Origin: Rhodothermales bacterium
GTDB lineage: Bacteria > Bacteroidota > Rhodothermia > Rhodothermales > Bin80
Direction of reading: 5' to 3'
Assembly: GCA_965220365.1 (NCBI GenBank)
Contig: OZ244823.1
Coordinates: 7,125-71,124, forward strand
Length of the DNA: 64,000 nt
Shown: positions 48,179 through 64,000 of the stretch, in pieces
How the letters are laid out: each line of letters begins with the position of its first letter
How positions within the stretch are numbered: the stretch's first letter is position 1
The notes under the pieces: model-generated
The model's input: the letters and a program-made list of their open reading frames with translations, nothing else
The model's database searches: none
Told to the model about the DNA's origin: nothing
Translations under genes and position numbers: made by a program

Positions 48179-48916
48179 ATGGCTATCGATATACAGGAGA
48201 ATCGGACCGCTGGAGTTGACCTTCGAGAAAAGGGAAAGGATGAGCATTCTGATCATCCCATTTACCATGATGGCCGATTGTATATGCAACTGTTAGTCTT
48301 CACTGGACTGAATGCAAAACCCCAAACCCTGGTTAGATTGATGGAAAAATCCGGGTTCTGTGGTGCATTGTATTCCAGTCTCCATGATCCTAAAGGGATT
48401 GGCTTGCTGACCGTCTCTGAGGATCCTCGGTTTTTTTTGACCGAGCTCCAATCCTTCCTGCACGATAGCGATTTTTCTCGTCTGCAGTGCCGTACCGACT
48501 GGACGATGATCGGTCGCACCTACGCGATTGGATACGAAAACGACCTGGTTGAAACCCTCTTTGAACGCCCAAAGAGATATGTGTGTAATCCCTCCTGGCC
48601 ATGGGCAATCTGGTATCCGCTTCGTCGTTCGGGTGATTTTGAACACTTGAGCACTGACGAGCGTCGGAAAATCCTCATGGAGCATGGTGGAATTGGTCGC
48701 GCATACGGACGAAGCGATCATGCCCATGATATCCGCCTCGCCTGTCACGGACTTGATCAAAACGACAATGATTTTGTGGTGGGGCTTCTGAGCAAGGATT
48801 TACATCCACTGTCTGCAATTATTGAACGGATGCGCAAGACGCAGCAGACTTCACGGTACTTGAGCAGCTTGGGGCCCTTCTTTGTCGGATATACACTCTG
48901 GCAATCTCCCCCCTGA
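48179..48916 (+). CDS. chdC: Chlorite-dismutase-family protein, probable coproheme decarboxylase (ChdC/HemQ)
   Basis: 245 aa. Cld/HemQ-fold blocks WAIWYPLRRS, ERRKILMEHGGIGRAY (proximal His region) and ACHGLDQNDNDFVVGLL. ATG directly abuts the hemB stop, and the gene sits between hemB and hemE. Confidence 0.6.
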   Translation: MAIDIQENRTAGVDLREKGKDEHSDHPIYHDGRLYMQLLVFTGLNAKPQTLVRLMEKSGFCGALYSSLHDPKGIGLLTVSEDPRFFLTELQSFLHDSDFSRLQCRTDWTMIGRTYAIGYENDLVETLFERPKRYVCNPSWPWAIWYPLRRSGDFEHLSTDERRKILMEHGGIGRAYGRSDHAHDIRLACHGLDQNDNDFVVGLLSKDLHPLSAIIERMRKTQQTSRYLSSLGPFFVGYTLWQSPP

Positions 48917-48946
48917 CCGTTATAGATCTCCCAATACTTTTGTCCC

Positions 48947-49975
48947 ATGACCGGACATGAGCGATTTCTGGCTGCATGCCATGGGAAGGCGGTTGACTGC
49001 ACCCCCATCTGGATCATGCGACAGGCTGGCCGTTACCTGCCTGACTATCGTGCACTGCGTCGTCAGTATTCGATGGAATCCGCCCTGAGCACGCCTGCAA
49101 TTGCCGCCGAAATCACCCTCCTCCCCTTGAAGCATTTTGAGCTGGATGCAGCAATCATTTTTTCAGATATCCTGCCACCCCTGGCGGGTATGGGGCTTGA
49201 CCTTTCGTTTGTACCAGATCATGGCCCCTCCATTCAGAACCCACTTCGAACGCCCAAAGCCATCGACATGCTGGGGGTTCCTCCTGCCCAGGAAGCCATG
49301 GCCCCGACGCTGGATGCGATCAAAATTGTCCGTCCTGAACTGGACACATGTAACCTGGCCCTGATTGGATTCGCAGGTGCCCCTTTCACCATGGCCAGCT
49401 ATGCGATCGAAGGAGGGGGCACACGCACCTTCGCACACACGAAAGCATTCATGTATAGCGAGCCCGCGGCCTGGGACCGCCTCATGGTCAAACTCTCTGG
49501 CTTGACCATTGACTACCTCAACGCACAAATCCGTGCCGGGGTGGACTGTGTACAGCTCTTTGACTCATGGGTCGGAGCGCTCAGCCGGTATGATTATGAG
49601 CGCTACGTTAAACCCCACAGCCATCATGTGCTTTCAACCATTGGAAAGAAGGCTCCCGTGATCCATTTCAGCACCAATACGGGCAGCTATCTGGACTTGG
49701 TTGCAGCCGCGGGTGGTCATGTGATCGGGGTTGACTGGCGTATCCCCATTGATGAAGCACAACGACTGGTAAAAAAACCCGTCATGGGAAATTTAGACCC
49801 CTGCACCTTACTCGGGCCGTGGCGTGAGCTGATCCCCCATGCCCAAGATGTGATGCAACGCATTGCAAGGCAGCCAGGCCATATCTTTAACCTCGGGCAT
49901 GGAATCCTGCCAGAAACGCCGGTAGAAAATGTGGCGCGACTGGTGGACTACGTACACAGCTATGACCATGATTAA
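48947..49975 (+). CDS. hemE: Uroporphyrinogen decarboxylase
   Basis: 342 aa. PIWIMRQAGRYLPDYR signature and FSDIL, FDSW blocks. Confidence 0.9.
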   Translation: MTGHERFLAACHGKAVDCTPIWIMRQAGRYLPDYRALRRQYSMESALSTPAIAAEITLLPLKHFELDAAIIFSDILPPLAGMGLDLSFVPDHGPSIQNPLRTPKAIDMLGVPPAQEAMAPTLDAIKIVRPELDTCNLALIGFAGAPFTMASYAIEGGGTRTFAHTKAFMYSEPAAWDRLMVKLSGLTIDYLNAQIRAGVDCVQLFDSWVGALSRYDYERYVKPHSHHVLSTIGKKAPVIHFSTNTGSYLDLVAAAGGHVIGVDWRIPIDEAQRLVKKPVMGNLDPCTLLGPWRELIPHAQDVMQRIARQPGHIFNLGHGILPETPVENVARLVDYVHSYDHD

Positions 49976-50930
49976 TCCTGAAAACCCGATTGGCATTTTA
50001 TTTATGGCCTATGGGGGGCCGGATCGCCTCAAAGATATACCGGGCTACCTAGCTGATATTCGTGCCGGTCGGACGACATCAAAAGCACTGATTGAGGAGA
50101 TTACACGTAATTACCGGTTGATTGGTGGATCTTCTCCACTTTTGGACTTGACCATCGAAACGACCCGCGCTGTAACGGATCTTCTGAATCCACCCAATGG
50201 GCCCACTTGCTTCGAACCCTATTTGGGGATGCGTCACTGGACTCCATGGATTGAAGAAACGGTCGGTCAAATGATTGAGGACGGAATTACCCGGTCCGTC
50301 AGTGTGGTCCTTGCGCCCCAGTACAGTCGGATGAGCATTGCGAAGTATCAGAAAAAAATAGATGCCGGTCTCAACTTCTATCGCGGCCAGATTGATTTTT
50401 CCCATATCCAGAGCTATCACGATGACCCTGGACTGATTGACGCATTTGCCAAACGTGTCCACATTGGCCTGGAGCGATTTCCTGAAGAGGATCGAGCCAG
50501 TGTGCATGTGATCTTCAGTGCCCACAGCCTACCTACACGAATTTTAAAGGAAAACGATCCCTACCCTACTCAATGCTACGAAACTGCCGCGCTGGTTGCA
50601 AAAGCAGCCGGACTGACTCCAGATCAGTGGTCTGGATGTTACCAGTCTGAAGGACGGAGCCCCGAACCATGGCTCGGTCCGCAATTAGAAGATTATCTGG
50701 TTGAGTTAGCTGGCAAGGGGATCCGAAATGTGGTCAGCATTCCTGTGGGTTTTGTGTCTGATCACGTAGAGGTGCTCTACGATATTGATATTGAAGCGCA
50801 GGCCGTTGCGAAAGAACACCATATGCGCCTGGAGCGCCCTCCCTCGCTCAATAGTGATCCCCTTTTTGTTGAGACCCTGGCAAGGTTGATCCGCAAACAG
50901 TCTGTGGATGCTGGCTGGCTGGCCGCATGA
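49968..50930 (+). CDS. hemH: Ferrochelatase family (coproporphyrin ferrochelatase if the pathway is coproporphyrin-dependent)
   Basis: MINPENPIGILFMAYGGP start (ATG 49968 or 49962, overlapping the hemE stop), SAHSLP and FVSDHVEVLYD blocks. Confidence 0.85.
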   Translation: MINPENPIGILFMAYGGPDRLKDIPGYLADIRAGRTTSKALIEEITRNYRLIGGSSPLLDLTIETTRAVTDLLNPPNGPTCFEPYLGMRHWTPWIEETVGQMIEDGITRSVSVVLAPQYSRMSIAKYQKKIDAGLNFYRGQIDFSHIQSYHDDPGLIDAFAKRVHIGLERFPEEDRASVHVIFSAHSLPTRILKENDPYPTQCYETAALVAKAAGLTPDQWSGCYQSEGRSPEPWLGPQLEDYLVELAGKGIRNVVSIPVGFVSDHVEVLYDIDIEAQAVAKEHHMRLERPPSLNSDPLFVETLARLIRKQSVDAGWLAA

Positions 50931-52279
50931 CCCGGGTCGTCATCATCGGGGGTGGAATTACTGGGTTGAGTGCTGCCTGGGCACTACGTCAATCTCCCAA
51001 TCCTCCAGAAATCATGCTCCTGGAGCAGAGTGAACGGTTGGGAGGATGCATCCATACCGAACAATTTAACGGCTTCCTGATGGAGCACGGGCCGGATGTA
51101 TTTCTGGCTCGCAAGCCTGAAGCGATACAACTCTGCGGCGCTCTGGGACTCTCTCTTCAAAAGACAAACAAGGATCAGCGGGGCACATACCTGCGACGAG
51201 GACACAGATTGTATCCGGTGCCGGAGGGGATGAGTGGGCTGGTGCCGGGACGGATTTGGCCACTGCTCAGCTCTCCACTGATCAGCCTTCGGGGAAAACT
51301 GCGCGTACTTGCAGAATTTTTGGTCCCATCTCGAACGGATGGGACAGATGAATCGATTCAAGACTTCTTCATCAGGCGGTTTGGCCGGGAAGCTTTCTCT
51401 GGCCTGATTGAGCCTCTCCTAGGAGGGCTTGCCGGAGGACGTGCCGACGAGCTCAGTATGAAGGCACTCCTGCCACATATGATGAACCTTGAATCAAAGT
51501 ATGGCAGTGTCCTCCTTGGAGTTGGCCAAATGCCCGTTCAGGAGCCTACTTCTCCACTCCTAAGTCTTCCAGATGGACTATCCTCTTTGATCACCGCCCT
51601 GACCATGGTCAACAAAAACAGTATCCGCTCTGGTCATAAGGCTACGGCCATCACAAAAATAGGTACGCACTGGAAGGTCAGCATCACCGGGCGTGCTCCC
51701 CTGTCGGCTACCGACATCGTTCTAGCCGTACCTGCCTGGAGTGCAGCGAAAATCACTCATTTAACGATTCCAGAACTAGCCAGACTCCTTCATCAAATCT
51801 CATATCGTGCAGGTACGATGGTTCATCTGGCTTACAACCAGACAGATGCCCCCGGGCCGCTCAACGGACATGGTCATCTGGTCGCCTCCGATCAAGTCAC
51901 TTCCGTGGCCGCGTGCACCTGGAGCGCTATCAAGCTCTCAGGACGTGCCCCCGCTGATCATTTGCTGTTCAGACTCTATTTACGTGGCACAAAGATGACC
52001 GACAAAATTATACTTACACAGGCACGCACAGAGATGGAACAGGCACTGGGAATTACAGCAGATCCCCTATTCACCAGTATTCACCGCTTCCCTGCTGCGT
52101 TACCTCAATATACACTTGGGCATGTCGGGCGAATCGCGAAAATCCGTGAGATTACGAACTCTCATTCAGGCCTCTATCTCGCGGGAAATTACCTGGACGG
52201 GGTGGGCATCCCTGATTGTATTCGCAACGGAATCCGCGCGGCAAATCAGATTCTCAGCCGGCATGAGGCGGCGATCTGA
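50927..52279 (+). CDS. hemY: HemY-type FAD oxidase (protoporphyrinogen/coproporphyrinogen III oxidase)
   Basis: 450 aa. VVIIGGGITGLSAAW FAD fold and a C-terminal GLYLAGNYLDGVGIPDCI block. ATGA overlap with hemH. Confidence 0.85.
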   Translation: MTRVVIIGGGITGLSAAWALRQSPNPPEIMLLEQSERLGGCIHTEQFNGFLMEHGPDVFLARKPEAIQLCGALGLSLQKTNKDQRGTYLRRGHRLYPVPEGMSGLVPGRIWPLLSSPLISLRGKLRVLAEFLVPSRTDGTDESIQDFFIRRFGREAFSGLIEPLLGGLAGGRADELSMKALLPHMMNLESKYGSVLLGVGQMPVQEPTSPLLSLPDGLSSLITALTMVNKNSIRSGHKATAITKIGTHWKVSITGRAPLSATDIVLAVPAWSAAKITHLTIPELARLLHQISYRAGTMVHLAYNQTDAPGPLNGHGHLVASDQVTSVAACTWSAIKLSGRAPADHLLFRLYLRGTKMTDKIILTQARTEMEQALGITADPLFTSIHRFPAALPQYTLGHVGRIAKIREITNSHSGLYLAGNYLDGVGIPDCIRNGIRAANQILSRHEAAI

Positions 52280-52972: not shown

Positions 52973-54232
52973 CTACCAGTCCTGCGATAAAGCGTCCTTG
53001 ACATGTGTCGGCAACTTGTAACTGATCCCTATGATGTCATCATAGGAGGAAATTCCCAACAATTCCGTGAAATTCTTTCTCTTGATAAATTGCGCATCCT
53101 TGAGCATGCTCTCAAGCACTATTTGGGCCCGAAACAGAAGGAGGGCGAGGAAGCCGTTATATTTGGGAAACTGTAAATCCTTTGCCGTCTTTCGTCCGAG
53201 AAGAACTCGTGAAAGTGCATATCCTAATTTCATCTGGTCTTGTGCTTCTTCTGCGGTCTGAACATCGGTTACCCGTGGTACGGCACGGACCAGTTCATTG
53301 GCTACAAGCACTGAATCTCGGTCTGTAGGTGGCTCACATAGCACGCCAATCTTAAAGATCCGATTGGCATCCTTTCGATTCTCGTACAGCATATCATCGG
53401 GGATACCGAATAAGTATCCCACGTAACGAAAGACATCCATGACGCTTTCTCTCTCTTCCCTGTTGAACCTCACACCAAGCAGTTTGCAAAAATGCAGCAG
53501 GCGGTCTGAAAAGACCGAAATGGCGAAACCTAGATGGGCTGCACTCAAGGGGATGCCCCAAGCTTGTTTATCCCATTCATCGGAGTGATTGAGCAGGTAG
53601 CGGACCTTGGCATGGACGAAGCGGATGCGCATGGTCATTTTCCATCCGTCATTTGGCCGCAACATGCCACCAGGATAAAAAATCTCAAGTATGTGCCGGG
53701 CATTATAACCTAGGCGACGCTTGGTATTCTTTGACCCAACTCTCCCCGTGATCCGAAAAGACTTGGCTATCATGGTTGTAAATCCTTCTACAAGGGCGCC
53801 TGCAACAAAAGCAGCAAGTACCAGACTGGCATTTTTGTAGACTGCGCGACCTGCGGGCCGAAAAGATTCGCAATCCAGCCAGGGCGGATTGGTGTTGTCC
53901 AGCTTGTGAAAGAATTCTCGTAAACAGTCTGGGGCTCCTGTCAGGAAATCTTCTTTTTGCTCAATACCAGCTCGCATGAACCGGCTGAAAACATCAGGGG
54001 GCAGAAGTGATGAGCACTCTTCAACTACCGGATCCAATTCGGGATCGCCAATAGTTGTATGACGAACATAAAGGTCTGCCAGAACCCGGTCCTTCCGTCG
54101 TGCCCTTTCATAGCCCAATTGATAACTGGTCGGAACGATAATGGAAGATGGCTCTCTTATTTGTACCTGTGCATCACTAGAAGTCCGTGGATAAAGTCTC
54201 TCAATAGATTGAGCAACGCTTTTCTGGTTCAT
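52973..54232 (-). CDS. MpaB/Lcp-type (DUF2236) oxygenase family protein
   Basis: 419 aa. Pattern R..Y.G......R.RFVHA.VR....... plus the AHLGFA region, as I remember for DUF2236 (ER-bound oxygenase MpaB / rubber oxygenase catalytic domain). Moderate certainty without an HMM. Confidence 0.6.
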   Translation of the reverse strand: MNQKSVAQSIERLYPRTSSDAQVQIREPSSIIVPTSYQLGYERARRKDRVLADLYVRHTTIGDPELDPVVEECSSLLPPDVFSRFMRAGIEQKEDFLTGAPDCLREFFHKLDNTNPPWLDCESFRPAGRAVYKNASLVLAAFVAGALVEGFTTMIAKSFRITGRVGSKNTKRRLGYNARHILEIFYPGGMLRPNDGWKMTMRIRFVHAKVRYLLNHSDEWDKQAWGIPLSAAHLGFAISVFSDRLLHFCKLLGVRFNREERESVMDVFRYVGYLFGIPDDMLYENRKDANRIFKIGVLCEPPTDRDSVLVANELVRAVPRVTDVQTAEEAQDQMKLGYALSRVLLGRKTAKDLQFPKYNGFLALLLFRAQIVLESMLKDAQFIKRKNFTELLGISSYDDIIGISYKLPTHVKDALSQDW

Positions 54233-54618: not shown

Positions 54619-55876
54619 TTAGTTGGGTTTGGGGGGCGAACGTAAGCTTCTACTGATCGTCTGTTTTTTAGTTTTCTGGTGTCGTTTCAGTGCTCGGATC
54701 AAGATTTCCCATTGCCAGTCTTTCGGGATTGGGTTCAGGGATCGTTGTTCGATTTCCAGACATGCGGCAGCAATCCATCGTTGGCGTTGATCCGAGTTCG
54801 TCCATCGTGTGACTCGCCGTGTGGTGTGCGCCAATCTGCTGTTGATGCTCTCAATGATATTGGTGGTCTGGAGTCGATCCCGCAGTTGCCTGGGGATGCA
54901 CAGCTTGTGGAGGGTCAGCGTTTCTTCCATGCCCTCGTTTCAGCTGGTGGCGGCGGCCGGACATGAGTCCTGCAGATCGGTCTCGAGTTTTGTCAAACGC
55001 TCTTTTGCTTCGGCATACGTGGATGTGGCCTACGCAGCTTCCATTTGATGTTTGACCTTCTCAGCATGGTCTCGATCGGTGATCTTGGAGACGACATTTT
55101 CCCGCTTGTGCCACTGGCACCGTTGGATCAGTGCCTGATCTCCAAACACCTCACGAACGCCTTTGTGCAAGCCCTTGGCACCATCAAGCAGCACCAACAA
55201 GGAGGCCGCCGACTGAAAGTTCCAGCAGATCCTGCAGTAACGCCATCACACAGGCATGGGATTCGGTTTTGGCTTCCGTGAACCCGAGAATCACTTTCCT
55301 TCCCTCTACGGTCAATCCCACGGCCAACAGGATCTGGTCCTCTTGTAAGGTTTTGCCGTCAAGCAGCAGGGTCGCAAACGCCATCTCATCAAAGCGCCGG
55401 TTCAGGAAGGTCTCCAGTGCCTGGGTCGTTTCCCGGATCAACACGCGCCCGGTGCTTGAGCCGCTGAGTCCAAAACTCTCCGCCAAGATGCGCGGCCACC
55501 TGACCATACTTGCGCTGAGACAGACCCAACAGCACACTGCGTGTCAATTGCTGTGCATGACCGGATTCGGCCTGATGCAGACATTGGTAGGTCTTCAGCG
55601 GGACTTCCTGCTGGTGTTGCGGACCCGGGGAACCTGAATCGGCACCTTCGCCCCGTTCCAGCGAATGGAGCCCGGGTTCGTCCCCCAACGCTGACACTTC
55701 GTCTGAGTATGGGTCCAGCGAACCCCGCAATGTTCGGAAACTTTGGCCTCAAACAAGTGCGGAACCAGCTCCAAAAACCAGTCCGGATGGCGAAGCAGCC
55801 GGGCAACGTCCACAGCATTCCGGGGTAGAGTCGTGTCAAGATCGGTGGAAACCGTCGTCCGAAGTTGGGTTGACAT
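54619..55876 (-). pseudogene. IS256-family (Transposase_mut) transposase, decayed: at least 3 frameshifts and 2 in-frame stops
   Basis: Pieces in four frames. MSTQL...GVRWTHTQTKCQRWGTNPGSIRWNGAKVPIQVPRVRN; QEVPLKTYQ...LLGLSQRKYGQV; AESFGLSGSST...ATLLLDGKTL (D1) ...EGRKVILGF; LLVLLDGAKGL (D2) ...IQRCQWHKRENV...AA*ATSTYAEAKERL...S*NEGMEETLTLHKL...QTTNIIESIN (E). Confidence 0.8.
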
Positions 55877-56802
55877 AAGATTACGCGTCTGGGGAAGGTT
55901 GTGTAAGGGTACGGTGCAATTGTGGAAGATACGAGGCGTGTCGCACACAGGTGCATTCGGCTCTGGTGCACCGGGCCCTGCGGCAGACTCCGGCCTGCAC
56001 GCACGAAGACGGCCTTCAAAGAATTCAACACGCGCAGGCCCCGATCACTGCGCAACAGCAGGCCGCTGTGCTGGAGCGTGAGCGTGGACGAAAGCGCACG
56101 CCCAAGCACGCGCCCCGAAGAACGGTTCACCTGCGTCAATTCCTCGGTGATCTGCTGCAAACTTGTATGGGCTTCAACGACATCGCAGCATTGCCATGCC
56201 TGTTGGAGGCGGTGACGAAATTGAAGGGCCTGATCGGGATCCAATCCGCTCAGTGCTTCGGCCATGACCGTATTCAGACAACGCTGCACCCACACCCGGG
56301 GACCCCACACCTGCGAGACCGCAGACCGCAGCGCCACGTTCCCTGGAAGCGTGAACAGAAGGCCTGGCCCCAGTCCACGGGTACGCAGATCATCCAGCAC
56401 CGCTTCCATGCAGGATTGATCTTCAGGACCGCATTCGGTCACCGTCACGATCCGCCGATGTCCCTGCAGGTTCACGCCCATCCCAATCAGGACCTGAAGA
56501 CCCAGGACATACGAGGGCGCAAGCCACAAATGCACCAGCGACTCGGTATGCCAATCTCGGCGCTCCAGCATCGAAACCGCCGCTTCCCAGCAGGAAGAAG
56601 GATCCGGCGGAGGCTCAGAAAGCTCCGGGGCCGGATCCGGTGCGACAGCAGCCGAGACAGCAGGCGGAGACACTGCCGAGGGAATCCGTTCCGTTAACAT
56701 GCGCAGAACATCTGCATAATGCCGAACCAGTTCCAGATGTACCTCCTGGGCAGACTCTGAAAAAGGCGGCGAAAAAGAATGTGGAGGTTGTATGTTGCTC
56801 AT
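55438..56802 (-). CDS. Transposase_mut-related ORF apparently lacking all three DDE residues and the N-terminal DNA-binding region. Homology ends near 55890, but the GC-rich frame stays open to 55438.
   Basis: ATG 56802 (MSNIQ...) lies 64 bp inside the right IR. It aligns by eye to IS256 transposases: LWLAPSY in place of the D1 block, GVNLQGHRRIVTV, LRTRGL, LFTLPGNVAL in place of the DG..GL block, VQRC, and VLNSLKAVF in place of the NxIExxN block. No frameshift over about 305 codons. Confidence 0.5.
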   Translation of the reverse strand: MSNIQPPHSFSPPFSESAQEVHLELVRHYADVLRMLTERIPSAVSPPAVSAAVAPDPAPELSEPPPDPSSCWEAAVSMLERRDWHTESLVHLWLAPSYVLGLQVLIGMGVNLQGHRRIVTVTECGPEDQSCMEAVLDDLRTRGLGPGLLFTLPGNVALRSAVSQVWGPRVWVQRCLNTVMAEALSGLDPDQALQFRHRLQQAWQCCDVVEAHTSLQQITEELTQVNRSSGRVLGRALSSTLTLQHSGLLLRSDRGLRVLNSLKAVFVRAGRSLPQGPVHQSRMHLCATRLVSSTIAPYPYTTFPRRVILCQPNFGRRFPPILTRLYPGMLWTLPGCFAIRTGFWSWFRTCLRPKFPNIAGFAGPILRRSVSVGGRTRAPFAGTGRRCRFRFPGSATPAGSPAEDLPMSASGRIRSCTAIDTQCAVGSVSAQVWSGGRASWRRVLDSAAQAPGAC

Positions 56803-57055
56803 TAAGTAGGTCCGTTTGAGGGGGATAGGATGTACCCCCAACCCCAACTAACTTTGACACATCCCCTTGCACAGATACATGTACCACTGAAACATAGAAC
56901 AAGGGCACAGTAGCGGGGGCGCACACTCAATCTGGTTGCCGCCCCCTTTCAGCTGCCAGTCTTCGGCCTGTGACAGAGTCCGTATCCAGGAATTTTACTA
57001 TCTTCGAAGTGCGGGCGACGATCTAGGTTTTCTGGATGCCCAGCACATTTTGTCA

Positions 57056-57216: not shown

Positions 57217-58389
57217 ATGAAACGGGGAAAGCTCGTATTTATTGTGGGTGCTATCGTTATTACAGGCACCGTATTCTTAGCCATTGCATTATCGCAACTG
57301 CGCTCCGGTACCTCAGAACCAATGTCGGAGCGTATCCTTCCTTTTGTCACGACCGTCGCACCTACCGTACATGAAGGGCGTGTCACAATACGCGGCAATG
57401 GAACGGTTCGACCACTGCGGGAAGTCACACTTATCGCTGAGGTTGCGGGGAAGATCACCTGGGTAGCGGACGAATTTGTCACTGGTGGTGCCTTCCGTCA
57501 GGGTCAGGAGATTCTCAGGATAGATTCCACCGATTATGCCAACGCGGTCACCGTCGCGCAGGCCGAGGTAACACAGCGGCAATTCGATTTGCTGAGAGCC
57601 GAAGAGGAGATGGAGATTTCAAAGGAGGAATGGGAACTTCTGAAAAGTCGAACGGGTATACAGAGACAGGTCGACAGCACTGAACTTGGCAGTCTTGTCT
57701 TCAAAGAACCGCATTGGAAGGCTGCAGTCGCGCAACTTCAAGGGGCTCAGGCACGGTTGCAGGATGCTGAGACGCGTCTGAAGCGGACACGTATTACCGC
57801 CCCGTATAATGGTCGTCTGCGGACCAAGGGAGCAGATTTGGGGCAATTTGTTGGAGCGGGGCATGTGATCGCCCTCTTCTATGAGACGGATGTCGTTGAG
57901 ATCAGCATCCCGATCGCGGGCCGCGATATAACGCTTCTTGGTGACCTGCTGGCTGGTAGAACCGGGGCTACTCAGGCCAAACTTGTTGCCCGTAATGCCG
58001 ACGGGGAGCATGAATGGATTGGGAGCATTCACCGCACGGAAGGGACCCTGGATGAGTCTACACGCACGCTCAATGTGATCGTCCGAGTACAGAAACCCTA
58101 TGAAAGTAGTGATGTGCGCCCGCCCCTTCTAGTGGGAACATTCGTTACTGCATACTTGGAAGGCCGGTACTTTAATCAATACTACACGCTGCCACGCGAA
58201 ACCCTTAGAGGAGGTGATGATGTCTGGATTGTCCGTGAGAACCGCCTGTATGTGCAACCCATAGAGATCATTCAGGAAGTGGAGGATACCCTCTATGTTC
58301 TAAACGGAATCACAGACGAGGACCAGGTAGTCACCAATATGCTGAATGCCATAACCGATGGCATGCGTGTACGGACCGAAATGGATTAG
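57217..58389 (+). CDS. RND efflux periplasmic adaptor (membrane fusion protein)
   Basis: 390 aa. N-terminal anchor, coiled-coil hairpin (AEVTQRQFDL...AQARLQDAETRLKRT), and the lipoyl-like motif ITAPYNGRL. Confidence 0.85.
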   Translation: MKRGKLVFIVGAIVITGTVFLAIALSQLRSGTSEPMSERILPFVTTVAPTVHEGRVTIRGNGTVRPLREVTLIAEVAGKITWVADEFVTGGAFRQGQEILRIDSTDYANAVTVAQAEVTQRQFDLLRAEEEMEISKEEWELLKSRTGIQRQVDSTELGSLVFKEPHWKAAVAQLQGAQARLQDAETRLKRTRITAPYNGRLRTKGADLGQFVGAGHVIALFYETDVVEISIPIAGRDITLLGDLLAGRTGATQAKLVARNADGEHEWIGSIHRTEGTLDESTRTLNVIVRVQKPYESSDVRPPLLVGTFVTAYLEGRYFNQYYTLPRETLRGGDDVWIVRENRLYVQPIEIIQEVEDTLYVLNGITDEDQVVTNMLNAITDGMRVRTEMD

Positions 58390-58415
58390 TCAGAAGCAGC
58401 AAGTAGCTTGCCGAC

Positions 58416-61400
58416 ATGAAGAAAGCTATTGCCTATATGGCACGCAACAGCGTCGCAGCGAATCTGCTGATGTTGCTGATTCTTTTCCTCGGACTCCTCA
58501 ATGTGTCAAGAATTCCGCAGGAGGTCTTTCAGGAAGCCAGCCTTGACGCTGTCGAAATCCGCGCAGACTACCGTGGAGCCTCCCCCGAAGAGGTAGAAGA
58601 TGGAGTCGTCCGACGCATTGAAGAGGCGATTGATGGCATAGATGACATTGATCGAATCTCATCTGTTGCTTCAGAAAATGTGGGCGTCGTGACGGTAAAC
58701 CTGGAACTGGGCGCTGATGTTGATAAGGCTCTCAACGACATCAAGAGTAATGTGGATCGCATCAATACATTTCCCGCTGAAGCGGAGCGGCCAATAGTGC
58801 GAGAGCTGACCAACCGTAGGAATGTTCTGCAGATTGCCATTTACGGGGATGCTGACGAGCATACACTCAAGGCCTTGGCAGAGCAGGTCAAGGATGAACT
58901 GACGGCACTTGACGAAATTTCCTTCGTGCGTTTGATAGGCGTGCGGGACTATGAAATATCAATTGAAGTCTCGAAAGATGCATTGGCCGCCTATGGGCTG
59001 CGTCTTTCTGATGTAGCAACTGCCGTGCGCCGCGGAAGCCTGGAACTGCCTGGTGGCAGCCTGGAGACGCGCAGTGAAGAAATCCTGGTTCGTTCCAAGG
59101 GCCAGAATTATACGGCCAGAGATTTTGAGGAAATTATCGTTCTGGCAACTCCAGCAGGTGCCACTGTCCGTCTCGCAGATCTCGCCACCGTTACGGATGG
59201 ATTTCAAGACGACGACATTATTGCACGATTTGGGGGGCAACCAGCGGTTCTCGTGGCGATTTCCCGCACGGGTGATGAGCGTGTCCTTGATATTGCTGAA
59301 GCCACCGAAGAGTACCTAGCGGGCTTCCGTACGAGTGTGCCGGAAGGGATTTCAGTGGATACATGGCGCAATGAGCACGCCTACCTCAAAAGCCGCCTCA
59401 ACCTTCTGATTAAAAATGGAATCGTTGGGTTCATACTTGTCATGCTGGCTCTGGTCTTGTCTATGAACCTTCACTTGGCATTATGGACATCCCTAGGGCT
59501 CCTGGTGTCTTTTATCGGCTCGTTTACGGTAATGGCATTACTGGGAGTTTCCATAGACATGACCTCTTTGTTTGCTTTTATTGTTGCCATTGGAATTGTG
59601 GTTGATGATGCCATCGTAATCGGGGAAAACATTTTCAGGGAGCAAGAGCGCGGCGTACCGCCCTTGCGCGCCGCAGTTGAAGGGGCCACGCGGCTCTGTG
59701 CACCTGTGACCTTTGCGGTGTTTACGACAATCGCAGCGTTTTCGCCAATGCTGTTTGTGCCGGGTTCAATGGGCAAGTTAATGCAATCTATCCCGACGGT
59801 TGCTATTACCGTTCTGGTGTTTTCCCTGATTGAATCGCTCTTTATCCTGCCTGCACATCTCTCGCACATGAAGAAGAATGCAGACCCTGGCAGGATCATG
59901 CAGCGCCTAGAACAGATACAGTCTGCTACAACGCAAGCCTTGGAACGCTTCATTCATGGTCCGCTAGATCGAATACTGCGGCTCACCACACAGCGTTATG
60001 CCCTTGTGCTGATCGGTTCGGTGGCTCTGATCTGTCTGTCACTCGCATTCGTGCGTGGTGGACTGATTCAATTCATTTTTATCCCCGAAATCGAAGGCGA
60101 AGTCGTAACAGCACGCATTGAGATGCCGTTGGGTACTCCGGCTCAACGAACGCAACAGGTTGCCGAATTACTGGAAGCGAAGGGGCATGAAACTGCCGCC
60201 GAATTACAAGCCAGCCTTCCAGAAGACCACCCGCCTCTGGTGACGAATACGATGACTTTAGTCGGTGACCAACCCTCCCTCGGGTTGAATCCGATGGCGG
60301 CTGATCAACACACGATTATCCAATCCCATCTGGGTGAGGTCAGCTTTGAATTGGTCAATGCCGAAATACGAAAGCTCCCTGCACTTGAATTTGAAGAGGC
60401 CTGGCGTGAAAAGGTTGGCGAAGTTCCCGGTGTAAACTCTCTCGTTTTCCAGGCTGCACTACTCTCCCTTGGAAGCAGCATTCGGGCAGAACTGAGTGCA
60501 CCCACCGTACAGGAACTGGAACAAGCAACAACGCGCTTTCGGGATGAGCTGACAAATATTGTAGGGACCTCCAATATCGATGATGATCAAGACAGGGGGA
60601 AACGCGAAGTTCAGTTGGAATTGCTTCCAGAATCACGCCCCCTCGGACTGACTTTTGAAGACATGGCCCTGCAGGTACGCAATGCCTTCTTTGGTGCCGA
60701 AGCCCTACGTATTCAGAGAGGCCGGGACGATGTCAGGGTGATGGTTCGCCTGCCGGAGGATGAACGCAATACCCCGGCCGACCTGCAGCGGCTCCGTATT
60801 CGAACACCTGCCGGAGCCGAGATCCCCCTCAGCGAAGTCGCTGAAGCACGCTTTGATACCGGCCCATCCACCATTCATCGACGTGACCGACGCCGTGTTG
60901 TGACCGTTACCGCAGATGTGAATGAAGAGCAAAATACACTGGATGCGGTCGTTGATCGTCTGGAATCAGAAATCGTGCCGGCTATTCAGACGGATATTCC
61001 AGGTTTCCGCGTAAGCTTCGAAGGAGAGCAGAGGCAACAAGCCGATGCTGTGAACTCGCTGACAAGAGGTTTCGTCATCGCATTGTTTGTGATGTACGCA
61101 CTTTTGGCCATTCCTTTTCGTTCATATGTCCAGCCGTTCATCATTCTCGCTGTGATTCCGTTTGGATTTATTGGTGCTCTGATTGGGCATATCGTCATGG
61201 GACTGAACCTAAGCATGCTCAGCCTGTTCGGGATCGTGGCACTAAGTGGAATTGTAATTAATGACTCGTTGGTACTGATTCATTTCACCAATGAAAGGAG
61301 GCGGGAGGGGGTACCTATGGAAGAAGCCATCTGGGAAGGTGGAAAGGCACGCTTTCGCCCAATCCTGCTCACATCTGTTACCACATTCCTCGGCGTTCTC

Positions 61401-61577
61401 CCCCTTATACTTGAACGGAGCACGCAGGCACAGTTTCTTATTCCGATGGCGGTAAGCCTTGGTGTTGGTGTGCTATTTGCCACGATCATCTTGATGATAC
61501 TGGTACCAGCACTCATGATGTTGCATCATCGCCTGAACAGCTTGCTTCGCCGCGGACATGCGGACCAATCCGCTTAG
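58416..61577 (+). CDS. RND efflux permease (AcrB/CzcA-like, 12 TM)
   Basis: 1053 aa. Typical N-terminus (RNSVAANLLMLLILFLGL...), duplicated 6-TM plus large periplasmic loop architecture, and the VVDDAIVIGENI block in TM4. No outer-membrane factor gene follows. Confidence 0.9.
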   Translation: MKKAIAYMARNSVAANLLMLLILFLGLLNVSRIPQEVFQEASLDAVEIRADYRGASPEEVEDGVVRRIEEAIDGIDDIDRISSVASENVGVVTVNLELGADVDKALNDIKSNVDRINTFPAEAERPIVRELTNRRNVLQIAIYGDADEHTLKALAEQVKDELTALDEISFVRLIGVRDYEISIEVSKDALAAYGLRLSDVATAVRRGSLELPGGSLETRSEEILVRSKGQNYTARDFEEIIVLATPAGATVRLADLATVTDGFQDDDIIARFGGQPAVLVAISRTGDERVLDIAEATEEYLAGFRTSVPEGISVDTWRNEHAYLKSRLNLLIKNGIVGFILVMLALVLSMNLHLALWTSLGLLVSFIGSFTVMALLGVSIDMTSLFAFIVAIGIVVDDAIVIGENIFREQERGVPPLRAAVEGATRLCAPVTFAVFTTIAAFSPMLFVPGSMGKLMQSIPTVAITVLVFSLIESLFILPAHLSHMKKNADPGRIMQRLEQIQSATTQALERFIHGPLDRILRLTTQRYALVLIGSVALICLSLAFVRGGLIQFIFIPEIEGEVVTARIEMPLGTPAQRTQQVAELLEAKGHETAAELQASLPEDHPPLVTNTMTLVGDQPSLGLNPMAADQHTIIQSHLGEVSFELVNAEIRKLPALEFEEAWREKVGEVPGVNSLVFQAALLSLGSSIRAELSAPTVQELEQATTRFRDELTNIVGTSNIDDDQDRGKREVQLELLPESRPLGLTFEDMALQVRNAFFGAEALRIQRGRDDVRVMVRLPEDERNTPADLQRLRIRTPAGAEIPLSEVAEARFDTGPSTIHRRDRRRVVTVTADVNEEQNTLDAVVDRLESEIVPAIQTDIPGFRVSFEGEQRQQADAVNSLTRGFVIALFVMYALLAIPFRSYVQPFIILAVIPFGFIGALIGHIVMGLNLSMLSLFGIVALSGIVINDSLVLIHFTNERRREGVPMEEAIWEGGKARFRPILLTSVTTFLGVLPLILERSTQAQFLIPMAVSLGVGVLFATIILMILVPALMMLHHRLNSLLRRGHADQSA

Positions 61578-62612
61578 CGGCCCGTGGATGAAGTCTATGT
61601 GTCCCAGGAATTACAGCGTTGGTGGGATTGCGGTTATGGGCTATCTCCAACTTCAACGACACCAATTTATGGCTTTGGCAGCCCGTTGATAATTCCCATC
61701 CGTATTACCTATTCACGATGGATTCCACCGCGACCGTACCCACTGATCGTGTTCAAAAGGACACCTTGTTTGAGAAGAAACGTTTCTACGCCCATCGTGG
61801 TCAGAACCCGTGACTGGACATCCATATTCAGGAGCCCCCTACCAACCCATGAATAAAATCTGGATTCTGGCAATTCTAGAATTGGTTTTGAAAGGCGAGG
61901 TTTGCCCACACGACTCTCCCAGAGACCTCGGTTGTCACGTTTGCTTCGGCATATGGATACGCGGTGTCTCCTCCATGTAATTGGAATTAATTCCTGACCA
62001 CTCATCACGGAGGTAGTCGTCATAAATGGTGCACGCGGCGGAACAGCTTGGCATGTAGTTTCGGGTCTCCAAACAAGAAGAATGGCAGCCACGGTCACGT
62101 ATACGATTAGAATGACGACAACGACCATGAAACTAAAATTTCTATCCATTGGATCACGTAAACATTTGAGGTATCAGATTCTGCCTCTGAATTTTCAAGC
62201 CGGTCTCATGAATAGATTCATTCTGCTTATGCAAGAGAAGGATGTGATAGATGATGTCTATATCTGACGAGATAAGCGATCTATTCCGCAACCACGGCTG
62301 TGCAAGTCGGACGGTGAAATTGGGAAGTACAGACACTACTGCAAGCAAGTTTGTTCATAGTTTCAAGCTGTCTTTAGTTGGCGAGGATTCCTTCTTAGGT
62401 ATGTATCGCACACGAGTACATATGCTAAGCGTACACAGGTATTTTACGTATTACCATGCTATACCAGGGGAACCTTTGGGGTTTCCCTAAATTCATGGCT
62501 TGTCTCACAATTTAGGCGGAAGCCCCAAGTTTAAAGCTTTTCCTCCAGGGACGGATGAGAACCGGAGAGGTTAATCGTAGGGGGAATCTTGGTGAAGCAG
62601 GATTCTCTATTT

Positions 62613-62638
62613 TTCCCTCCAAAAACTGAGGGAGGGGG
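62613..62638 (+). promoter_or_regulatory. Hairpin pairing an anti-SD (ttccctcc) with the GGAGGG Shine-Dalgarno of the methyltransferase gene
   Basis: 62613-62620 ttccctcc can pair with 62631-62638 ggaggggg (6 Watson-Crick plus 2 G-U pairs, 10-nt loop). GGAGGG sits 8 nt before ATG 62645. Confidence 0.3.
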
Positions 62639-62644
62639 CAAACC

Positions 62645-63676
62645 ATGCCATGGAAGCTATCGAAAAAACTCAAGGATGCGTACCGGGAGGGCAATGTCTC
62701 CAGTCGTGTGCAAGACCTCGAGAGTTGGATGGAGCGAGCGACGCCCGAAGCCGTTGATTCGGGCGATTACGACCACACCCAGCTGGTCAGGGACTACTAC
62801 GATCTTTACAATGAACTAATGGCATGGAGTTGGGGTGAATCCCTGCACTTCGCGCCCCTCGCGCCGCATGAGACCTTGGAGGATTCCAAAATCCGCCATC
62901 AGCGGTTGATGATCGACAAGCTGGACCTGAAGCAGGGTATGACGGTGGTTGATATTGGTTGTGGAATCGGTGGCCCGATGCGTCGTGTCGTTCGTGAGGC
63001 TGATGTTCGAGTTGTCGGGGTTAACATCAACAAAATCCAGCTGGAAAAGGCGAAAAGATTGAATGCCGAGGCTGGGCTCGATCACATGGTTGATTACTTG
63101 GCATGCAGCTTCATGGATATGAACGTTATCGAAGACAACACCTTTGACCGGGGCTACGCCATCGAGTCAACGTGCCATGCCCCGGATAAGCAAAGTGCAT
63201 TTGAAGAGATATTCCGTGTGCTAAAACCTGGCGCTCTTTTCTGGGGGCAAGAAATGTGTCTGACAGACAAGTTTGATCCGAATAACAGACGGCACCGGGA
63301 CCTTAAGCGTGACCTCCAGCGCAGCATTGCACTAAAGGGTATCGCCACGTTCGGGGAAGTAACTCAAGCGCTTGAAGCGGCGGGGTTCCACATCATCGAG
63401 GGGATGGACCGGGGCATCTCAGGGGAAGGAACCACACCATGGTATCAACCCGTGGAGGGTCGACATGGGAGGTTGGGTAAAGCCTCGCTCAGGCTTCCAT
63501 GGGCCCGCAGGGCGGTGGTCACAGGATCAAAGCTGGCCGAGATGGTTGGGTTGTTCCCAAAGGGCTCCGCAGAAGTCTTCCGATCCTTGGACCGGACCGC
63601 TGATGCCTATGTCGGGGGTGGTAAAACTGGTATCTTCACGCCGTTGTACTGTTTTTTGGCGCGCAAACCCTATTAG
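62645..63676 (+). CDS. Sterol 24-C-methyltransferase-like SAM-dependent methyltransferase (ERG6/SMT1 family)
   Basis: 343 aa. Region I WSWGESLHFAP, SAM loop VVDIGCGIGGP, region II YAIESTCHAP, region III LKPGALFWGQEMCLTDKFD and the C-terminal GGKTGIFTPLYCFLARKP (Sterol_MT_C-like), in the same order and spacing as yeast Erg6 as I recall it. Confidence 0.8.
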   Translation: MPWKLSKKLKDAYREGNVSSRVQDLESWMERATPEAVDSGDYDHTQLVRDYYDLYNELMAWSWGESLHFAPLAPHETLEDSKIRHQRLMIDKLDLKQGMTVVDIGCGIGGPMRRVVREADVRVVGVNINKIQLEKAKRLNAEAGLDHMVDYLACSFMDMNVIEDNTFDRGYAIESTCHAPDKQSAFEEIFRVLKPGALFWGQEMCLTDKFDPNNRRHRDLKRDLQRSIALKGIATFGEVTQALEAAGFHIIEGMDRGISGEGTTPWYQPVEGRHGRLGKASLRLPWARRAVVTGSKLAEMVGLFPKGSAEVFRSLDRTADAYVGGGKTGIFTPLYCFLARKPY

Positions 63677-64000
63677 ACCGATTGGCACTGTGTTTGCCGA
63701 GCACGTACCATTACGACCGAAGGTCAAGCTTGAAATGAAGGCAGAGGTAAAAACTGGGATTAGGACGACGTCCGATTTATCACCAGAAGAAAAATCGGAT
63801 TGACCCAAGCTCACAATTTTCGTCGCCAGACTAGCACTTTTTTCGGAACGTTTGGGGAAACGATGGAAGCAATCAAACATGGTCGTGTGTGTTGTTTTAC
63901 GCAAAGCTGTTTTGTATCTTCTCGTGGTGGCAGTGGCAAGTTCTGAGTTATAAACAAGAATCGTGATCTCAGGCTAATCTTTGATATACAGTGCATGGAC

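Follow-up and report, generated by a model that had tools for sequence, protein, structure and literature searches.

What does a gene resembling the sterol C-24 methyltransferase gene ERG6 do in a Rhodothermales bacterium? The gene lies at the end of the stretch of DNA analysed here (64,000 nucleotides, hereafter the window), and an earlier note, made from the sequence alone, had read it as a eukaryote-type enzyme, encoded by a gene standing alone in gene-poor DNA and acquired horizontally. The question reaches well beyond this host, for side-chain-methylated steranes such as 24-isopropylcholestane and 26-methylstigmastane are evidence used for early animals. Bacterial symbionts encode working C-24 sterol methyltransferases (SMTs), and the authors who showed this state that enzymes for other side-chain methylations, e.g. 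at C-26, are undiscovered (Brown et al., 2023).

The open reading frame and its family

The open reading frame is real and intact, exactly where the earlier note had placed it (Table 1). It begins with ATG and encodes a methyltransferase core at about residues 95-200, followed by a Sterol_MT_C domain at residues 286-342. All five motif blocks by which the gene had been recognised are present in the translation: YYDLYNELMAWSWGESLHFAP (residues 51-71), VVDIGCGIGGP (101-111), YAIESTCHAP (171-180), LKPGALFWGQEMCLTDKFDPNN (193-214) and GGKTGIFTPLYCFLARKP (325-342). The Erg6 strings quoted alongside them agree with the reference protein (NP_013706.1, its identity confirmed by exact look-up) except at one residue (YYNVV, not YYNLV).

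Table 1. Features of the window around the SMT gene and the DNA that leads out of it.
Feature	Position	Strand	Evidence or remark
RND membrane-fusion protein, distant paralogue of the module adaptor	57217..58389	+	Pfam HlyD_3
RND (AcrB-type) inner-membrane pump, distant paralogue of the module pump	58416..61577	+	Pfam ACR_tran, 550 bits
RND membrane-fusion (adaptor) pseudogene fragment, first ~100 codons, inverted	61885..62167	-	blastx
Rieske oxygenase (KshA-type) pseudogene fragment, last 61 codons	62175..62357	+	blastx
Conserved 5' leader, common to Rhodothermales orthologues	62526..62644	+	
Shine-Dalgarno-like GGGAGGGGG	62630..62638	+	ends 6 nt before ATG
SMT-superfamily methyltransferase CDS, "SMT2-type" clade, intact, 343 aa	62645..63676	+	ORF, Pfam, alignment, tree
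Intergenic DNA toward the module's own adaptor and pump (beyond the window)	63677..64000	+	match to L001-L003

Membership of the ERG6/SMT superfamily, as the earlier note had proposed, is borne out by Pfam, where Sterol_MT_C (PF08498) scores 59.5 bits against a gathering cutoff of 21.7 and Methyltransf_11/25 and CMAS match over the methyltransferase core. The 150 best library representatives are all SMT-like, with full-length matches that take in the C-terminal domain. Library, PDB and NCBIfam matches alike keep the protein apart from the tocopherol, PEAMT and CFA/mycolate methyltransferases; the PDB and NCBIfam matches to CFAS, PEAMT and SDMT cover the methyltransferase core only and lie far below cut-offs. 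NCBIfam, which has no SMT model, is uninformative here because even Erg6 and a functional SMT1 copy obtain no family match. PDB searches by sequence and by fold returned no solved SMT, all matches being confined to the methyltransferase core. An AlphaFold2 model of the window SMT, built on an alignment of 97 diverse sequences, reached a pLDDT of 93.9 (a shallow alignment of 39 sequences, all at least 69% identical, gave 55, and that model was discarded), and its nearest solved folds include the olefin/isoprenoid C-methyltransferases TleD and the GPP and FPP methyltransferases.

The gene is under purifying selection, with dN/dS of 0.12-0.29 against Rhodothermales orthologues. Its ribosome-binding site, described in the earlier note as the only strong GGAGGG in the window, is indeed strong (GGAGG core at 62631-62635, 9 nt before the ATG) and nearly unique, GGAGG standing upstream of 3 of the 42 ORFs scored; orthologues in other phyla keep purine-rich versions of it. 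Further upstream, the leader contains a hairpin of 11 bp at 62581-62608 and a CCCTCC at 62615-62620 that is complementary to the Shine-Dalgarno sequence. A riboswitch or structured leader was considered and rejected: the leader has no Rfam match at E<=1, a covariation term of about 0 and a folding z-score of -1.9. A regulatory role for this leader would be only a possibility, because both the Rfam match and the covariation are absent.

Clade membership and the sterol pocket

In NJ trees the window SMT falls in a clade that we call SMT2-type, corresponding to the "2 of 2" SMTs of Brown et al. (2023). This clade is monophyletic in 200 of 200 bootstraps, outliers included, and stands apart from Erg6, rice SMT1 and functional co-located SMT1 copies. 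Within it the window SMT nests with copies from Rhodothermales and from Thermodesulfobacteriota/Spirochaetia, and its identity to clade members is at least 67%. Tree and alignment thereby place the gene product among the SMT superfamily in a distinct bacterial clade, and the description "eukaryote-type" does not hold, the clade being exclusively bacterial and set off by a long branch from Erg6, from plant SMT1 and from the functional SMTs of bacteria. The literature that we searched treats the clade only as extra or non-functional SMT copies.

With Erg6 and plant SMT1/SMT2 the protein shares a class-I methyltransferase core and the Sterol_MT_C architecture, and its AlphaFold2 fold is confident with an alignment that includes eukaryotic SMTs. 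It retains the SAM motif DxGxGxxGP (125-133 in the yeast numbering used hereafter, VVDIGCGIGGP in the window protein), H90, E195 and G217, the block YAIExTCHAP and the C-terminal tail GGKxxxFTP...ARKP. Across the clade alignment (n = 83, of which 82 are alignable at the motif, one ORF being N-terminally cut) the D, G, G and P of the SAM motif are invariant in 82/82, with G or A at position 132, and SAM-binding residues are invariant in 82-83 of the 83 members. In contrast to Erg6, to which its identity is about 33%, and to the plant SMTs, the window protein belongs to a separate clade, has no N-terminal extension and departs from them at the positions that follow.

According to Brown and Welander (2025), 25 residues, T78, G84 and F89 among them, are conserved in every functional C-24 SMT. 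The window SMT keeps 22 of these; T78 is replaced by N, G84 by S and F89 by L, and throughout the SMT2-type clade position 78 is never T and position 89 is L (82/82). The substitutions fixed in the clade are Y81M, F89L, Y223Q, W225M, A112I, D177S, L348Y and I/L/V at 249, so that its signature reads M81, L89, I112, S177, Q223, M225, I/L/V249 and Y348; every one is present in the window protein, as M59, L67, I90, S155, Q202, M204, I228 and Y322. M59, which aligns with Y81, is Met in 82 of 82 clade members, whereas among 109 other SMTs position 81 is Tyr in 87% and Met in under 1%. The YEW of Region IV (Y223, W225) has become QEM, with Q202 and M204 fixed, against Y at 223 in 73% and W at 225 in 83% of other SMTs, and D/G249 has become Ile (I228). 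In published SMT models, positions 81 and 249 come within 5 A of the docked sterol. The alignments point to a sterol pocket that has been altered, and systematically remodelled, across the clade, and with such a pocket the SMT probably methylates a lipid of sterol type that is not among the classical C-24 substrates. The further label "C-24 methyltransferase" must hence be given up as it stood: T78, G84 and F89 are missing, Y81 is Met, and a tested orthologue appears to have been inactive on the two standard C-24 substrates.

That orthologue, at 9989-11023 of contig L038, corresponds to IMG gene 2682229270, "Nitrospira sp., coral reef 2 of 2" (Brown et al., 2023), since BLASTP identities to Erg6 of 35.632% and 38.810% match the 35.63 and 38.81 of the paper and the gene order matches as well. 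We infer its inactivity on desmosterol and 24-methylenecholesterol from the conserved-residue statement, with which the count of inactive enzymes agrees. Such inactivity could be due to poor expression of the enzyme in E. coli lysate; the SMT preprint also holds that inactive SMTs may need other sterol substrates. The window protein is 70% identical to "Nitrospira 2 of 2" and shares its M81/L89/I249 signature, and the two genes have KshA-like and GPP34-P450 neighbours in common. It differs in its host phylum, in carrying N78 and additionally G84S, and in that its module is rearranged and the KshA-like gene decayed. Two more published sequences, "A. aerophoba ...10000835 2 of 2" and "T. swinhoei Chromatiales 2 of 2", are probably of the same type, judging by their low ERG6 identity.

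The functional bacterial SMTs (the "1 of 2" type, e.g. "Nitrospira sp. coral reef 1 of 2" and the A. aerophoba symbiont SMT) share the superfamily and an origin in sponge- or coral-associated MAGs, and in Nitrospirales no more than about 5 kb separates the two types. The window SMT is, however, only 36-43% identical to the "1 of 2" enzymes, which retain the canonical T-Y/F-G-F signature and belong to an sdmAB-ERG24-CYP51-OSC cluster, whereas SMT2-type genes travel with an efflux system, a GPP34-P450 and a KshA-like oxygenase. (Epi)codisterol is the product of "Nitrospira 1 of 2".

The gene module, its host and its spread

Far from standing alone, the SMT gene lies at the edge of a conserved module of several genes, which runs past the end of the window. 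Besides the SMT, this module comprises an outer-membrane factor, an adaptor with an RND pump (or MMPL), a fusion of GPP34 and P450, a Rieske oxygenase of the KshA type and a flavoprotein resembling amine oxidases; over 81 loci we counted the GPP34-P450 in 67, the KshA-like gene in 51, an RND pump in 39 or MMPL in 15, and the flavoprotein in 26. The KshA-like protein, the most conserved partner besides the P450, belongs to a steroid-specific family of Rieske oxygenases, and named PDB matches of the P450 domain include CYP51. One recurrent cluster, "unk425", was treated as spurious antisense ORFs and set aside, because it had no Pfam match and often lay opposite a known gene.

Within the window we find an RND pair, whose adaptor and pump are 31-39% and 42-46% identical to their module counterparts, and the remnants of a KshA-like gene and of an adaptor. 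The Rieske fragment has 77% amino acid identity to residues 270-330 of a 330-aa KshA-like protein (L008; blastx). The adaptor fragment, with a frameshift near 61980 and two HSPs in different frames, is 54-62% identical to the N-termini of the module adaptors of L001, L004 and L005. The earlier note was correct about the lengths of the gaps (1067 bp upstream, 324 bp from the gene to the window end), and the upstream DNA is decayed as it had suggested; that DNA nevertheless holds these two pseudogene fragments, and is made up of remnants of the SMT's own module instead of gene-poor DNA. This flank is the scar of a module rearrangement. On the other side, the length of the gap is set by the window edge, the SMT being the last gene before it.

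The contig index has no protein identical to the window SMT, and context beyond that edge was read from a 99% relative (P0001) and its 99%-identical contig L001. The terminal DNA of the window is 98.7% identical to L001-L003, in which it is followed by adaptor, pump, GPP34-P450, KshA-like pseudogene and OEP, so that in L001 the GPP34-P450 and a second RND pair lie 3' of the SMT; positions 63851-63999 also match the DNA that precedes the adaptor gene in L004 and L005, and blastx of the terminal segment gave no protein match. The KshA-like copies are pseudogenes in this Rhodothermales lineage and the GPP34-P450 is intact in the 99% relative. The decay of the KshA-like gene could mean that the module is being lost here.

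The host is a member of the Rhodothermales, in keeping with the Bacteroidota-like features noticed earlier: its HemB shares 83% identity with that of Rhodothermales MAGs but less than 58% with any other, and the T9SS sorting domain is present, in an S8 peptidase at 11624-15025. We recovered relatives of the SMT at 519 loci in species-representative MAGs assigned to at least 12 phyla, with identities of 67-90%; copies in MAGs of Thermodesulfobacteriota and Spirochaetia reach 83-85%, those in ten further phyla about 70%. Set against a HemB below 58%, the 83-85% identity in other phyla upholds the proposal of horizontal acquisition, and the clade has moved horizontally between MAGs from many phyla. 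Base composition adds weakly to this (GC z = 0.7, GC3 z = 2.0); the case is one of phylogenetic incongruence, not of composition. Many carrier MAGs come from sponges and corals, judging by isolate names, and the Rhodothermales host is probably a sponge symbiont.

No cyclase or other sterol-synthesis gene is found in the 64-kb window or within 10 kb of the SMT in seven Rhodothermales relatives. A genome-wide OSC scan lists no Rhodothermales among 80 of 520 loci (a cluster-bearing Nitrospirales genome is equally absent there), and a protein search lists none among the best 120 of 1476 matches. Sponge-associated Rhodothermia are reported to carry ERG24-CYP51-OSC clusters. In Nitrospirales about 4 kb separates an SMT2-type gene from a core cluster that is complete, with sdmAB, ERG24, a CYP51-like P450 and SMO-OSC; most SMT2-type loci have no core sterol genes nearby.

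Candidate substrates and their implications

We put at roughly 55% the probability that the gene product is an active class-I SAM-dependent C-methyltransferase whose sterol-type substrate or regiochemistry differs from the classical C-24 reaction. Such an enzyme would methylate an olefin in a sterol-type lipid presumably unlike the delta-24 substrates desmosterol and 24-methylenecholesterol, the difference lying in another side-chain position or in prior modification of the sterol by the partner P450 or Rieske oxygenase. Transport of the methylated lipid to or across the outer membrane might then fall to the RND/MMPL system, and in the Rhodothermales lineage the module would have been rearranged and partly eroded while the SMT stayed intact. 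C-24 methylation of other sterols (lanosterol, cycloartenol, zymosterol, 4-methyl sterols) is possible, because most catalytic residues of C-24 SMTs are kept, and a canonical sterol 24-C-methyltransferase acting on a delta-24 sterol with any such nucleus, or a 3-keto one, is a tentative and somewhat unlikely alternative. It would account for Sterol_MT_C, Regions II and III, H90, E195 and the 22 of 25 conserved residues, and it draws on the nearby core cluster in Nitrospirales, on the clusters reported in Rhodothermia and on the preprint's suggestion of other sterols. However, core clusters already include a functional SMT1-type copy of their own, most loci have no core sterol genes nearby, and the fixed changes fall at side-chain contacts (81, 249) and aromatics (89, 223, 225), not at the positions expected to read the nucleus.

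The substrate might not be a sterol at all. Botryococcus SMT-like triterpene methyltransferases act on non-sterol triterpenes, and an isoprenoid olefin methyltransferase of this kind, using squalene, a hopanoid or other triterpenoid, a carotenoid or a polyprenyl lipid, would fit the prenyl, GPP and FPP C-methyltransferases among the nearest solved folds, the many carriers with no cyclase near the gene, the absence of Rhodothermales from the OSC matches listed and the loss of the aromatics typical of sterol pockets. We nonetheless consider it distinctly unlikely: the top partner besides the P450 comes from a steroid-specific oxygenase family, the module adjoins a sterol core cluster in Nitrospirales, and the P450 domain has CYP51 among its named PDB matches. 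An inactive or decaying paralogue with no methyltransferase function is very improbable. The apparent inactivity of the orthologue and the pseudogenised flanking genes speak for it, but the ORF is intact and of family-typical length, the SAM-binding residues are invariant, identity holds across at least 12 phyla, dN/dS is low, and a strong Shine-Dalgarno sequence and conserved leader are retained. As to mis-binned eukaryotic DNA from a sponge or alga, or a very recent eukaryotic transfer, we give it next to no credence: beyond a general ERG6 resemblance nothing speaks for it, and against it stand the distance from Erg6, the lack of introns, the Shine-Dalgarno sequence, nearest relatives that are all bacterial MAGs, complete chromosomes included, and contiguity in the window with Rhodothermales housekeeping genes (heme operon, ArgRS, PBP2/RodA).

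That the SMT scaffold can be retargeted has precedent in the nematode STRM-1, reported as a sterol C-4 methyltransferase (PMC6997595, PMC9136925). STRM-1 and the Botryococcus enzymes show the scaffold at work on another carbon or on a non-sterol triterpene; they differ in being eukaryotic and in having no comparable module. The most interesting version of a non-C-24 reaction would make the clade the missing sterol side-chain methyltransferase, a 26-SMT on delta-25 sterols like (epi)codisterol, the product of the co-located Nitrospirales SMT1 copy; it would supply the methyl group that aplysterol-type and 26-methylstigmastane-type sterols bear at C-26. We regard this specific version as a long shot. 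If it were true, symbionts, instead of or alongside the sponge, would be a source of a biomarker now taken as evidence of Neoproterozoic animals.

The window SMT belongs to a second bacterial SMT clade, one that is very widespread and accompanied by oxygenases and an exporter of its own. If the substrate or regiochemistry of this clade is distinct, metagenomic tallies of "SMT genes" lump two activities together, and the assignment of sources to unusual sponge sterols would need revisiting. If it merely prefers another sterol, the clade would still mark a mobile module for sterol tailoring and export, apparently shared across the sponge microbiome. Bacterial RND and MMPL transporters of cyclic triterpenoids include HpnN (hopanoids) and BstA (sterols), and the present module resembles these systems in having an RND or MMPL transporter gene next to lipid-tailoring genes, a likeness of gene context.

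Family membership and the remodelled pocket

The gene opens with ATG and its translation contains all five sequence blocks that an earlier note had ascribed to a eukaryote-type sterol methyltransferase (SMT, the ERG6 family). The Erg6 strings quoted in that note agree at all but one residue with Erg6, confirmed by exact look-up as NP_013706.1. In Pfam, the core matches generic class-I methyltransferase models and CMAS, and residues 286-342 match Sterol_MT_C at 59.5 bits against a cutoff of 21.7; this is the match whose absence the note had named as speaking against its assignment. NCBIfam holds no SMT model and gives Erg6 itself no specific match, and the PDB holds no solved SMT, matches of the window protein being limited to the methyltransferase core.

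According to a preprint, 25 residues are conserved in every SMT functional in the authors' assays, T78 and F89 (yeast Erg6 numbering) being among those that all functional SMTs share, and docked sterol comes within 5 A of positions 81 and 249 (Brown and Welander, 2025). We aligned 83 members of the bacterial clade that includes the window protein (SMT2-type), nine co-located copies of the canonical functional kind (SMT1-type) and Erg6. The nine SMT1-type copies keep the canonical residues. In the SMT2-type clade T78 is never present (S, N, G or H instead), position 81 is M and position 89 is L in 82/82 members, and position 249 is I, L or V in 83/83; the window protein additionally carries G84S. 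Of 104 full-length proteins representing the wider family, taken from a library of 1.84 billion proteins and including a rice cycloartenol C-24 methyltransferase, the large majority show the signature T-Y-G-F-(D/N/G), and M81 combined with L89 occurs only in the SMT2-type clade and four outliers. Scanned systematically, seven positions proved clade-fixed and family-discordant (Y81M, F89L, A112I, D177S, Y223Q, W225M, L348Y), and four of these changes replace conserved aromatics. The clade and outliers were recovered in 200/200 bootstraps of a distance-based neighbour-joining tree without outgroup, where the clade sits on a long branch apart from Erg6, plant SMTs and bacterial SMT1-type copies. 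The AlphaFold2 model of the full-length window protein, built from a diverse 97-sequence alignment, is confident (pLDDT 93.9, pTM 0.92); judged by homology to published docked models, the signature residues would cluster about the pocket.

The Nitrospirales contig Plut_88904 (70,077 bp; locus L038) is the source of the copies named 'Nitrospira sp., coral reef 1 of 2' (2682229274) and '2 of 2' (2682229270) by Brown et al. (2023). Its two SMTs gave 38.810% and 35.632% BLASTP identity to Erg6, and the published figures for the same copies are 38.81% and 35.63%. One is adjacent to ERG24, sdmA and sdmB; the second lies four genes further on, with a KshA-like gene and a GPP34-P450 fusion as its neighbours. 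The window protein shares 70% identity with this second copy and 41% with the first, and is therefore an orthologue of '2 of 2'. Both SMT types occur less than 10 kb apart in eight loci (L016, L033, L037, L038, L042, L043, L056, L066), L016 having two SMT1-type copies beside its SMT2-type one; such co-retention argues that the types are non-redundant.

The module around the gene and its decay

The gene had been described as standing alone, which does not hold, since it belongs to a conserved module that extends past the window edge. In three relatives' loci (L001-L003), which encode a 99%-identical protein and whose DNA matches the window at 98.7% identity beyond about 62.4 kb, the SMT is followed by an RND adaptor (397 aa), an RND pump (1065 aa), a GPP34-P450 fusion of 679 aa encoded on the opposite strand, a KshA_C/Rieske gene and an outer-membrane efflux protein (OEP). 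We clustered all ORFs of 81 loci, naming the clusters via Pfam: GPP34-P450 occurs in 67, a Rieske/KshA_C oxygenase in 51, an RND pump in 39 (with an adaptor in 28 and an OEP in 14), an amine-oxidase-like flavoprotein in 26 and MMPL in 15. The commonest order is OEP-adaptor-pump-GPP34-P450-SMT, with oxygenase and flavoprotein alongside. Core sterol-synthesis genes (sdmA, sdmB, ERG24, a second P450, a fusion of squalene monooxygenase (SMO) with oxidosqualene cyclase (OSC), a second SMT) occur no more than 10 kb from the SMT in only a minority of the 81 loci, chiefly Nitrospirales.

The most constant neighbour, of about 680 aa, consists of a lipid-binding domain resembling GPP34/GOLPH3 (PF05719) fused with a cytochrome P450. 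PDB matches of the P450 domain are weak (best E 2e-19), CYP51 being among them (5e-17), and the fusion might be the second 'CYP51' clade of sponge symbionts of Kelly et al. (2022).

Upstream, the 1067 bp called decayed or non-coding are indeed decayed, but two module remnants fill them, so the decay is one of module rearrangement and not the setting of an orphan gene. The relatives' loci L004 and L005 run adaptor-pump-SMT, including a spacer of 250 bp, whereas in the window lineage the SMT is placed upstream of the module's adaptor-pump pair. A second, distantly paralogous RND pair precedes the window SMT, 31%/42% identical to the L001 adaptor/pump and up to 39%/46% to other module copies. In L001 the full-length KshA-like gene is broken up and reads as a pseudogene, unlike the SMT and GPP34-P450, which are intact there.

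Coordinates of features in the window and, where an L number precedes them, in relatives' loci
Feature	Position	Strand	Remarks
SMT	62645-63676	+	343 aa
SMT 5' leader	62526-62644
ORF antisense to SMT	63527-63904	-	125 aa
KshA-like oxygenase remnant	62175-62357	+	last 61 residues; 77% aa identity
RND adaptor remnant	62167-61885	-	first ~100 residues; frameshifted
Paralogous RND pair	57217-61577
Mutator-type transposase-like ORF	55438-56847	-	469 aa; partial Mutator-family match
MpaB/Lcp (rubber-oxygenase-like) catalytic-domain protein	52973-54232	-	419 aa; between heme operon and transposase-like ORF
Coproporphyrin-dependent heme-biosynthesis operon	44317-52279	+	complete: GluTR, HemC, HemD, HemB, chlorite-dismutase-like HemQ, HemE, ferrochelatase, HemY-type oxidase
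MmeI-family type IIL restriction-modification enzyme	35354-38023	+	889 aa; all four MmeI domains
Two adjacent DDE_Tnp_1 transposase genes	16760-17803, 18095-19822	+	first is one of three GGAGG-preceded ORFs
GPP34-P450 fusion	L001 6618-8657; L004 1633-3663; L038 11145-13214	-
KshA-like Rieske oxygenase gene	L001 8884-9862	-	four blocks, three reading frames, residues 62-101 gone
Symbiont SMO-OSC fusion	L037 2961-6566	+	1201 aa

Probable substrate and rival readings

We put at somewhat better than even odds (about 0.55) that the window SMT is catalytically active and uses SAM to C-methylate an olefin in a sterol-type lipid other than the two classical delta-24 substrates. This lipid could differ in the side-chain position attacked, or could be a sterol that the module's P450 or Rieske oxygenase has tailored beforehand, and the product would then be trafficked by the RND or MMPL system. 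Family, clade, module, horizontal transfer, selection and pocket remodelling are seen in the data, whereas substrate class, sequence of steps and transport are deduced. In Brown et al. (2023), four of 24 metagenomic SMTs were inactive, two symbiont-derived and two environmental; the preprint describes a Beatty hot-spring enzyme as an inactive SMT without deviations (Brown and Welander, 2025). Three inactive enzymes with deviations are left, which matches the three '2 of 2' copies of lowest ERG6 identity (34.5-35.6%, values from Brown et al., 2023); 'Nitrospira 2 of 2' has S78 and L89 where functional SMTs share T78 and F89. We infer that the '2 of 2' enzymes are probably the inactive ones.

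The authors' remark that inactive enzymes 'may require different sterol substrates' also suits a C-24 SMT acting on a sterol nucleus other than those assayed, a possible but unlikely reading. The closest solved folds include olefin/isoprenoid C-methyltransferases (TleD, GPP and FPP C-methyltransferases, CFA synthase) and RebM/MitM-type enzymes, with TM-scores of 0.50-0.67 when normalised to the query; a non-sterol isoprenoid methyltransferase strikes us as distinctly unlikely. The co-located SMT1 of Nitrospirales makes (epi)codisterol, according to Brown et al. (2023), a sterol on which a 26-SMT has been proposed to act; that the SMT2-type clade supplies non-C-24 side-chain methylation, for instance at C-26, is decidedly doubtful. 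A dead paralogue, in a module that has lost parts, is very improbable: dN/dS against Rhodothermales orthologues is 0.12-0.29, indicating purifying selection. Eukaryotic contamination we regard as negligible for a window that also holds ordinary chromosomal genes such as ArgRS, PBP2/RodA, SurA, DapF and a T9SS-tailed S8 peptidase.

As to sterol supply, cyclase, epoxidase, ERG24, sdmAB and GPP34-P450 are not encoded in the 64-kb window, nor are the first four found within 10 kb of the SMT in seven Rhodothermales relatives. ERG24-CYP51-OSC clusters are reported in sponge-associated Rhodothermia (Kelly et al., 2022). The OSC clade of sponge symbionts is large (520 loci); the best 80 of these, and the best 120 of 1476 proteins, include no Rhodothermales OSC, and miss a cluster-bearing Nitrospirales genome too. 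Like the SMT, SMO-fused OSCs span many phyla, at 75-100% identity among the matches listed (L164-L243 of the 520 loci), so that mobility in these communities appears to extend to the complete sterol toolkit.

Host, horizontal transfer and neighbouring genes

Window HemB is 83% identical to that of two Rhodothermales MAGs, and 72% to that of a Rhodothermaceae MAG, and no other match among 185,579 species genomes reaches 58%, which places the host in the Rhodothermales and agrees with its earlier description as Bacteroidota-like. The window protein has 2642 database relatives (E<=1e-10), and 519 loci in species-representative genomes encode one. The best 80 of these are 66-90% identical to it, all in MAGs, whose record titles name Rhodothermales/Bacteroidota, Thermodesulfobacteriota, Dadabacteria, Spirochaetia, Nitrospinota, Nitrospirota, Latescibacterota, Dehalococcoidia/Chloroflexi, Gemmatimonadota, Actinomycetota, Alpha- and Gammaproteobacteria and Binatia. 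Many isolate names presumably denote sponge and coral projects: SB06xx/APA/bin80 (Aplysina), Plut (Porites) and RHO, IRC, COS and jk18x/p16x (Ircinia).

SMT identity between this genome and Thermodesulfobacteriota or Spirochaetia MAGs is 83-85%, whereas housekeeping HemB stays below 58% outside the order; this incongruence is strong evidence for horizontal transfer and bears out the acquisition proposed in the earlier note. It is far stronger support than composition, which is mildly unusual (GC z=0.7, GC3 z=2.0). The note's remark that the SMT alone in the window has a strong GGAGGG ribosome-binding site was nearly right, GGAGG preceding 3/42 scored ORFs (SMT, a DDE transposase, uppS). Horizontal transfer and purifying selection of sterol gene clusters have been described in Ircinia symbionts, Rhodothermia included (Kelly et al., 2022), and bacterial SMTs of sponge symbionts are already known, members of the SMT2-type clade having been cloned and assayed (Brown et al., 2023). 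In the literature searched we found no prior account that treats the clade as a lineage apart, with a remodelled pocket and a conserved oxygenase and exporter module of its own, present in at least 12 phyla.

The SMT leader is conserved among Rhodothermales orthologues, with invariant blocks GGATGAGA, GGAATC and TCCAA. It could fold an 11-bp hairpin followed by CCCTCC pairing with the GGGAGG Shine-Dalgarno, a putative structure that shows no Rfam match and no covariation. The antisense ORF overlapping the SMT 3' end, a 97-aa gene call in L001-L003, has no Pfam match on record and is probably spurious. The Mutator-type ORF, just upstream of the paralogous RND pair, exceeds all other ORFs of the window in GC (0.594); its DNA is 72-77% identical to L005 1993-3799, which adjoins the module in another Rhodothermales genome, and it may have been the agent of module rearrangement.
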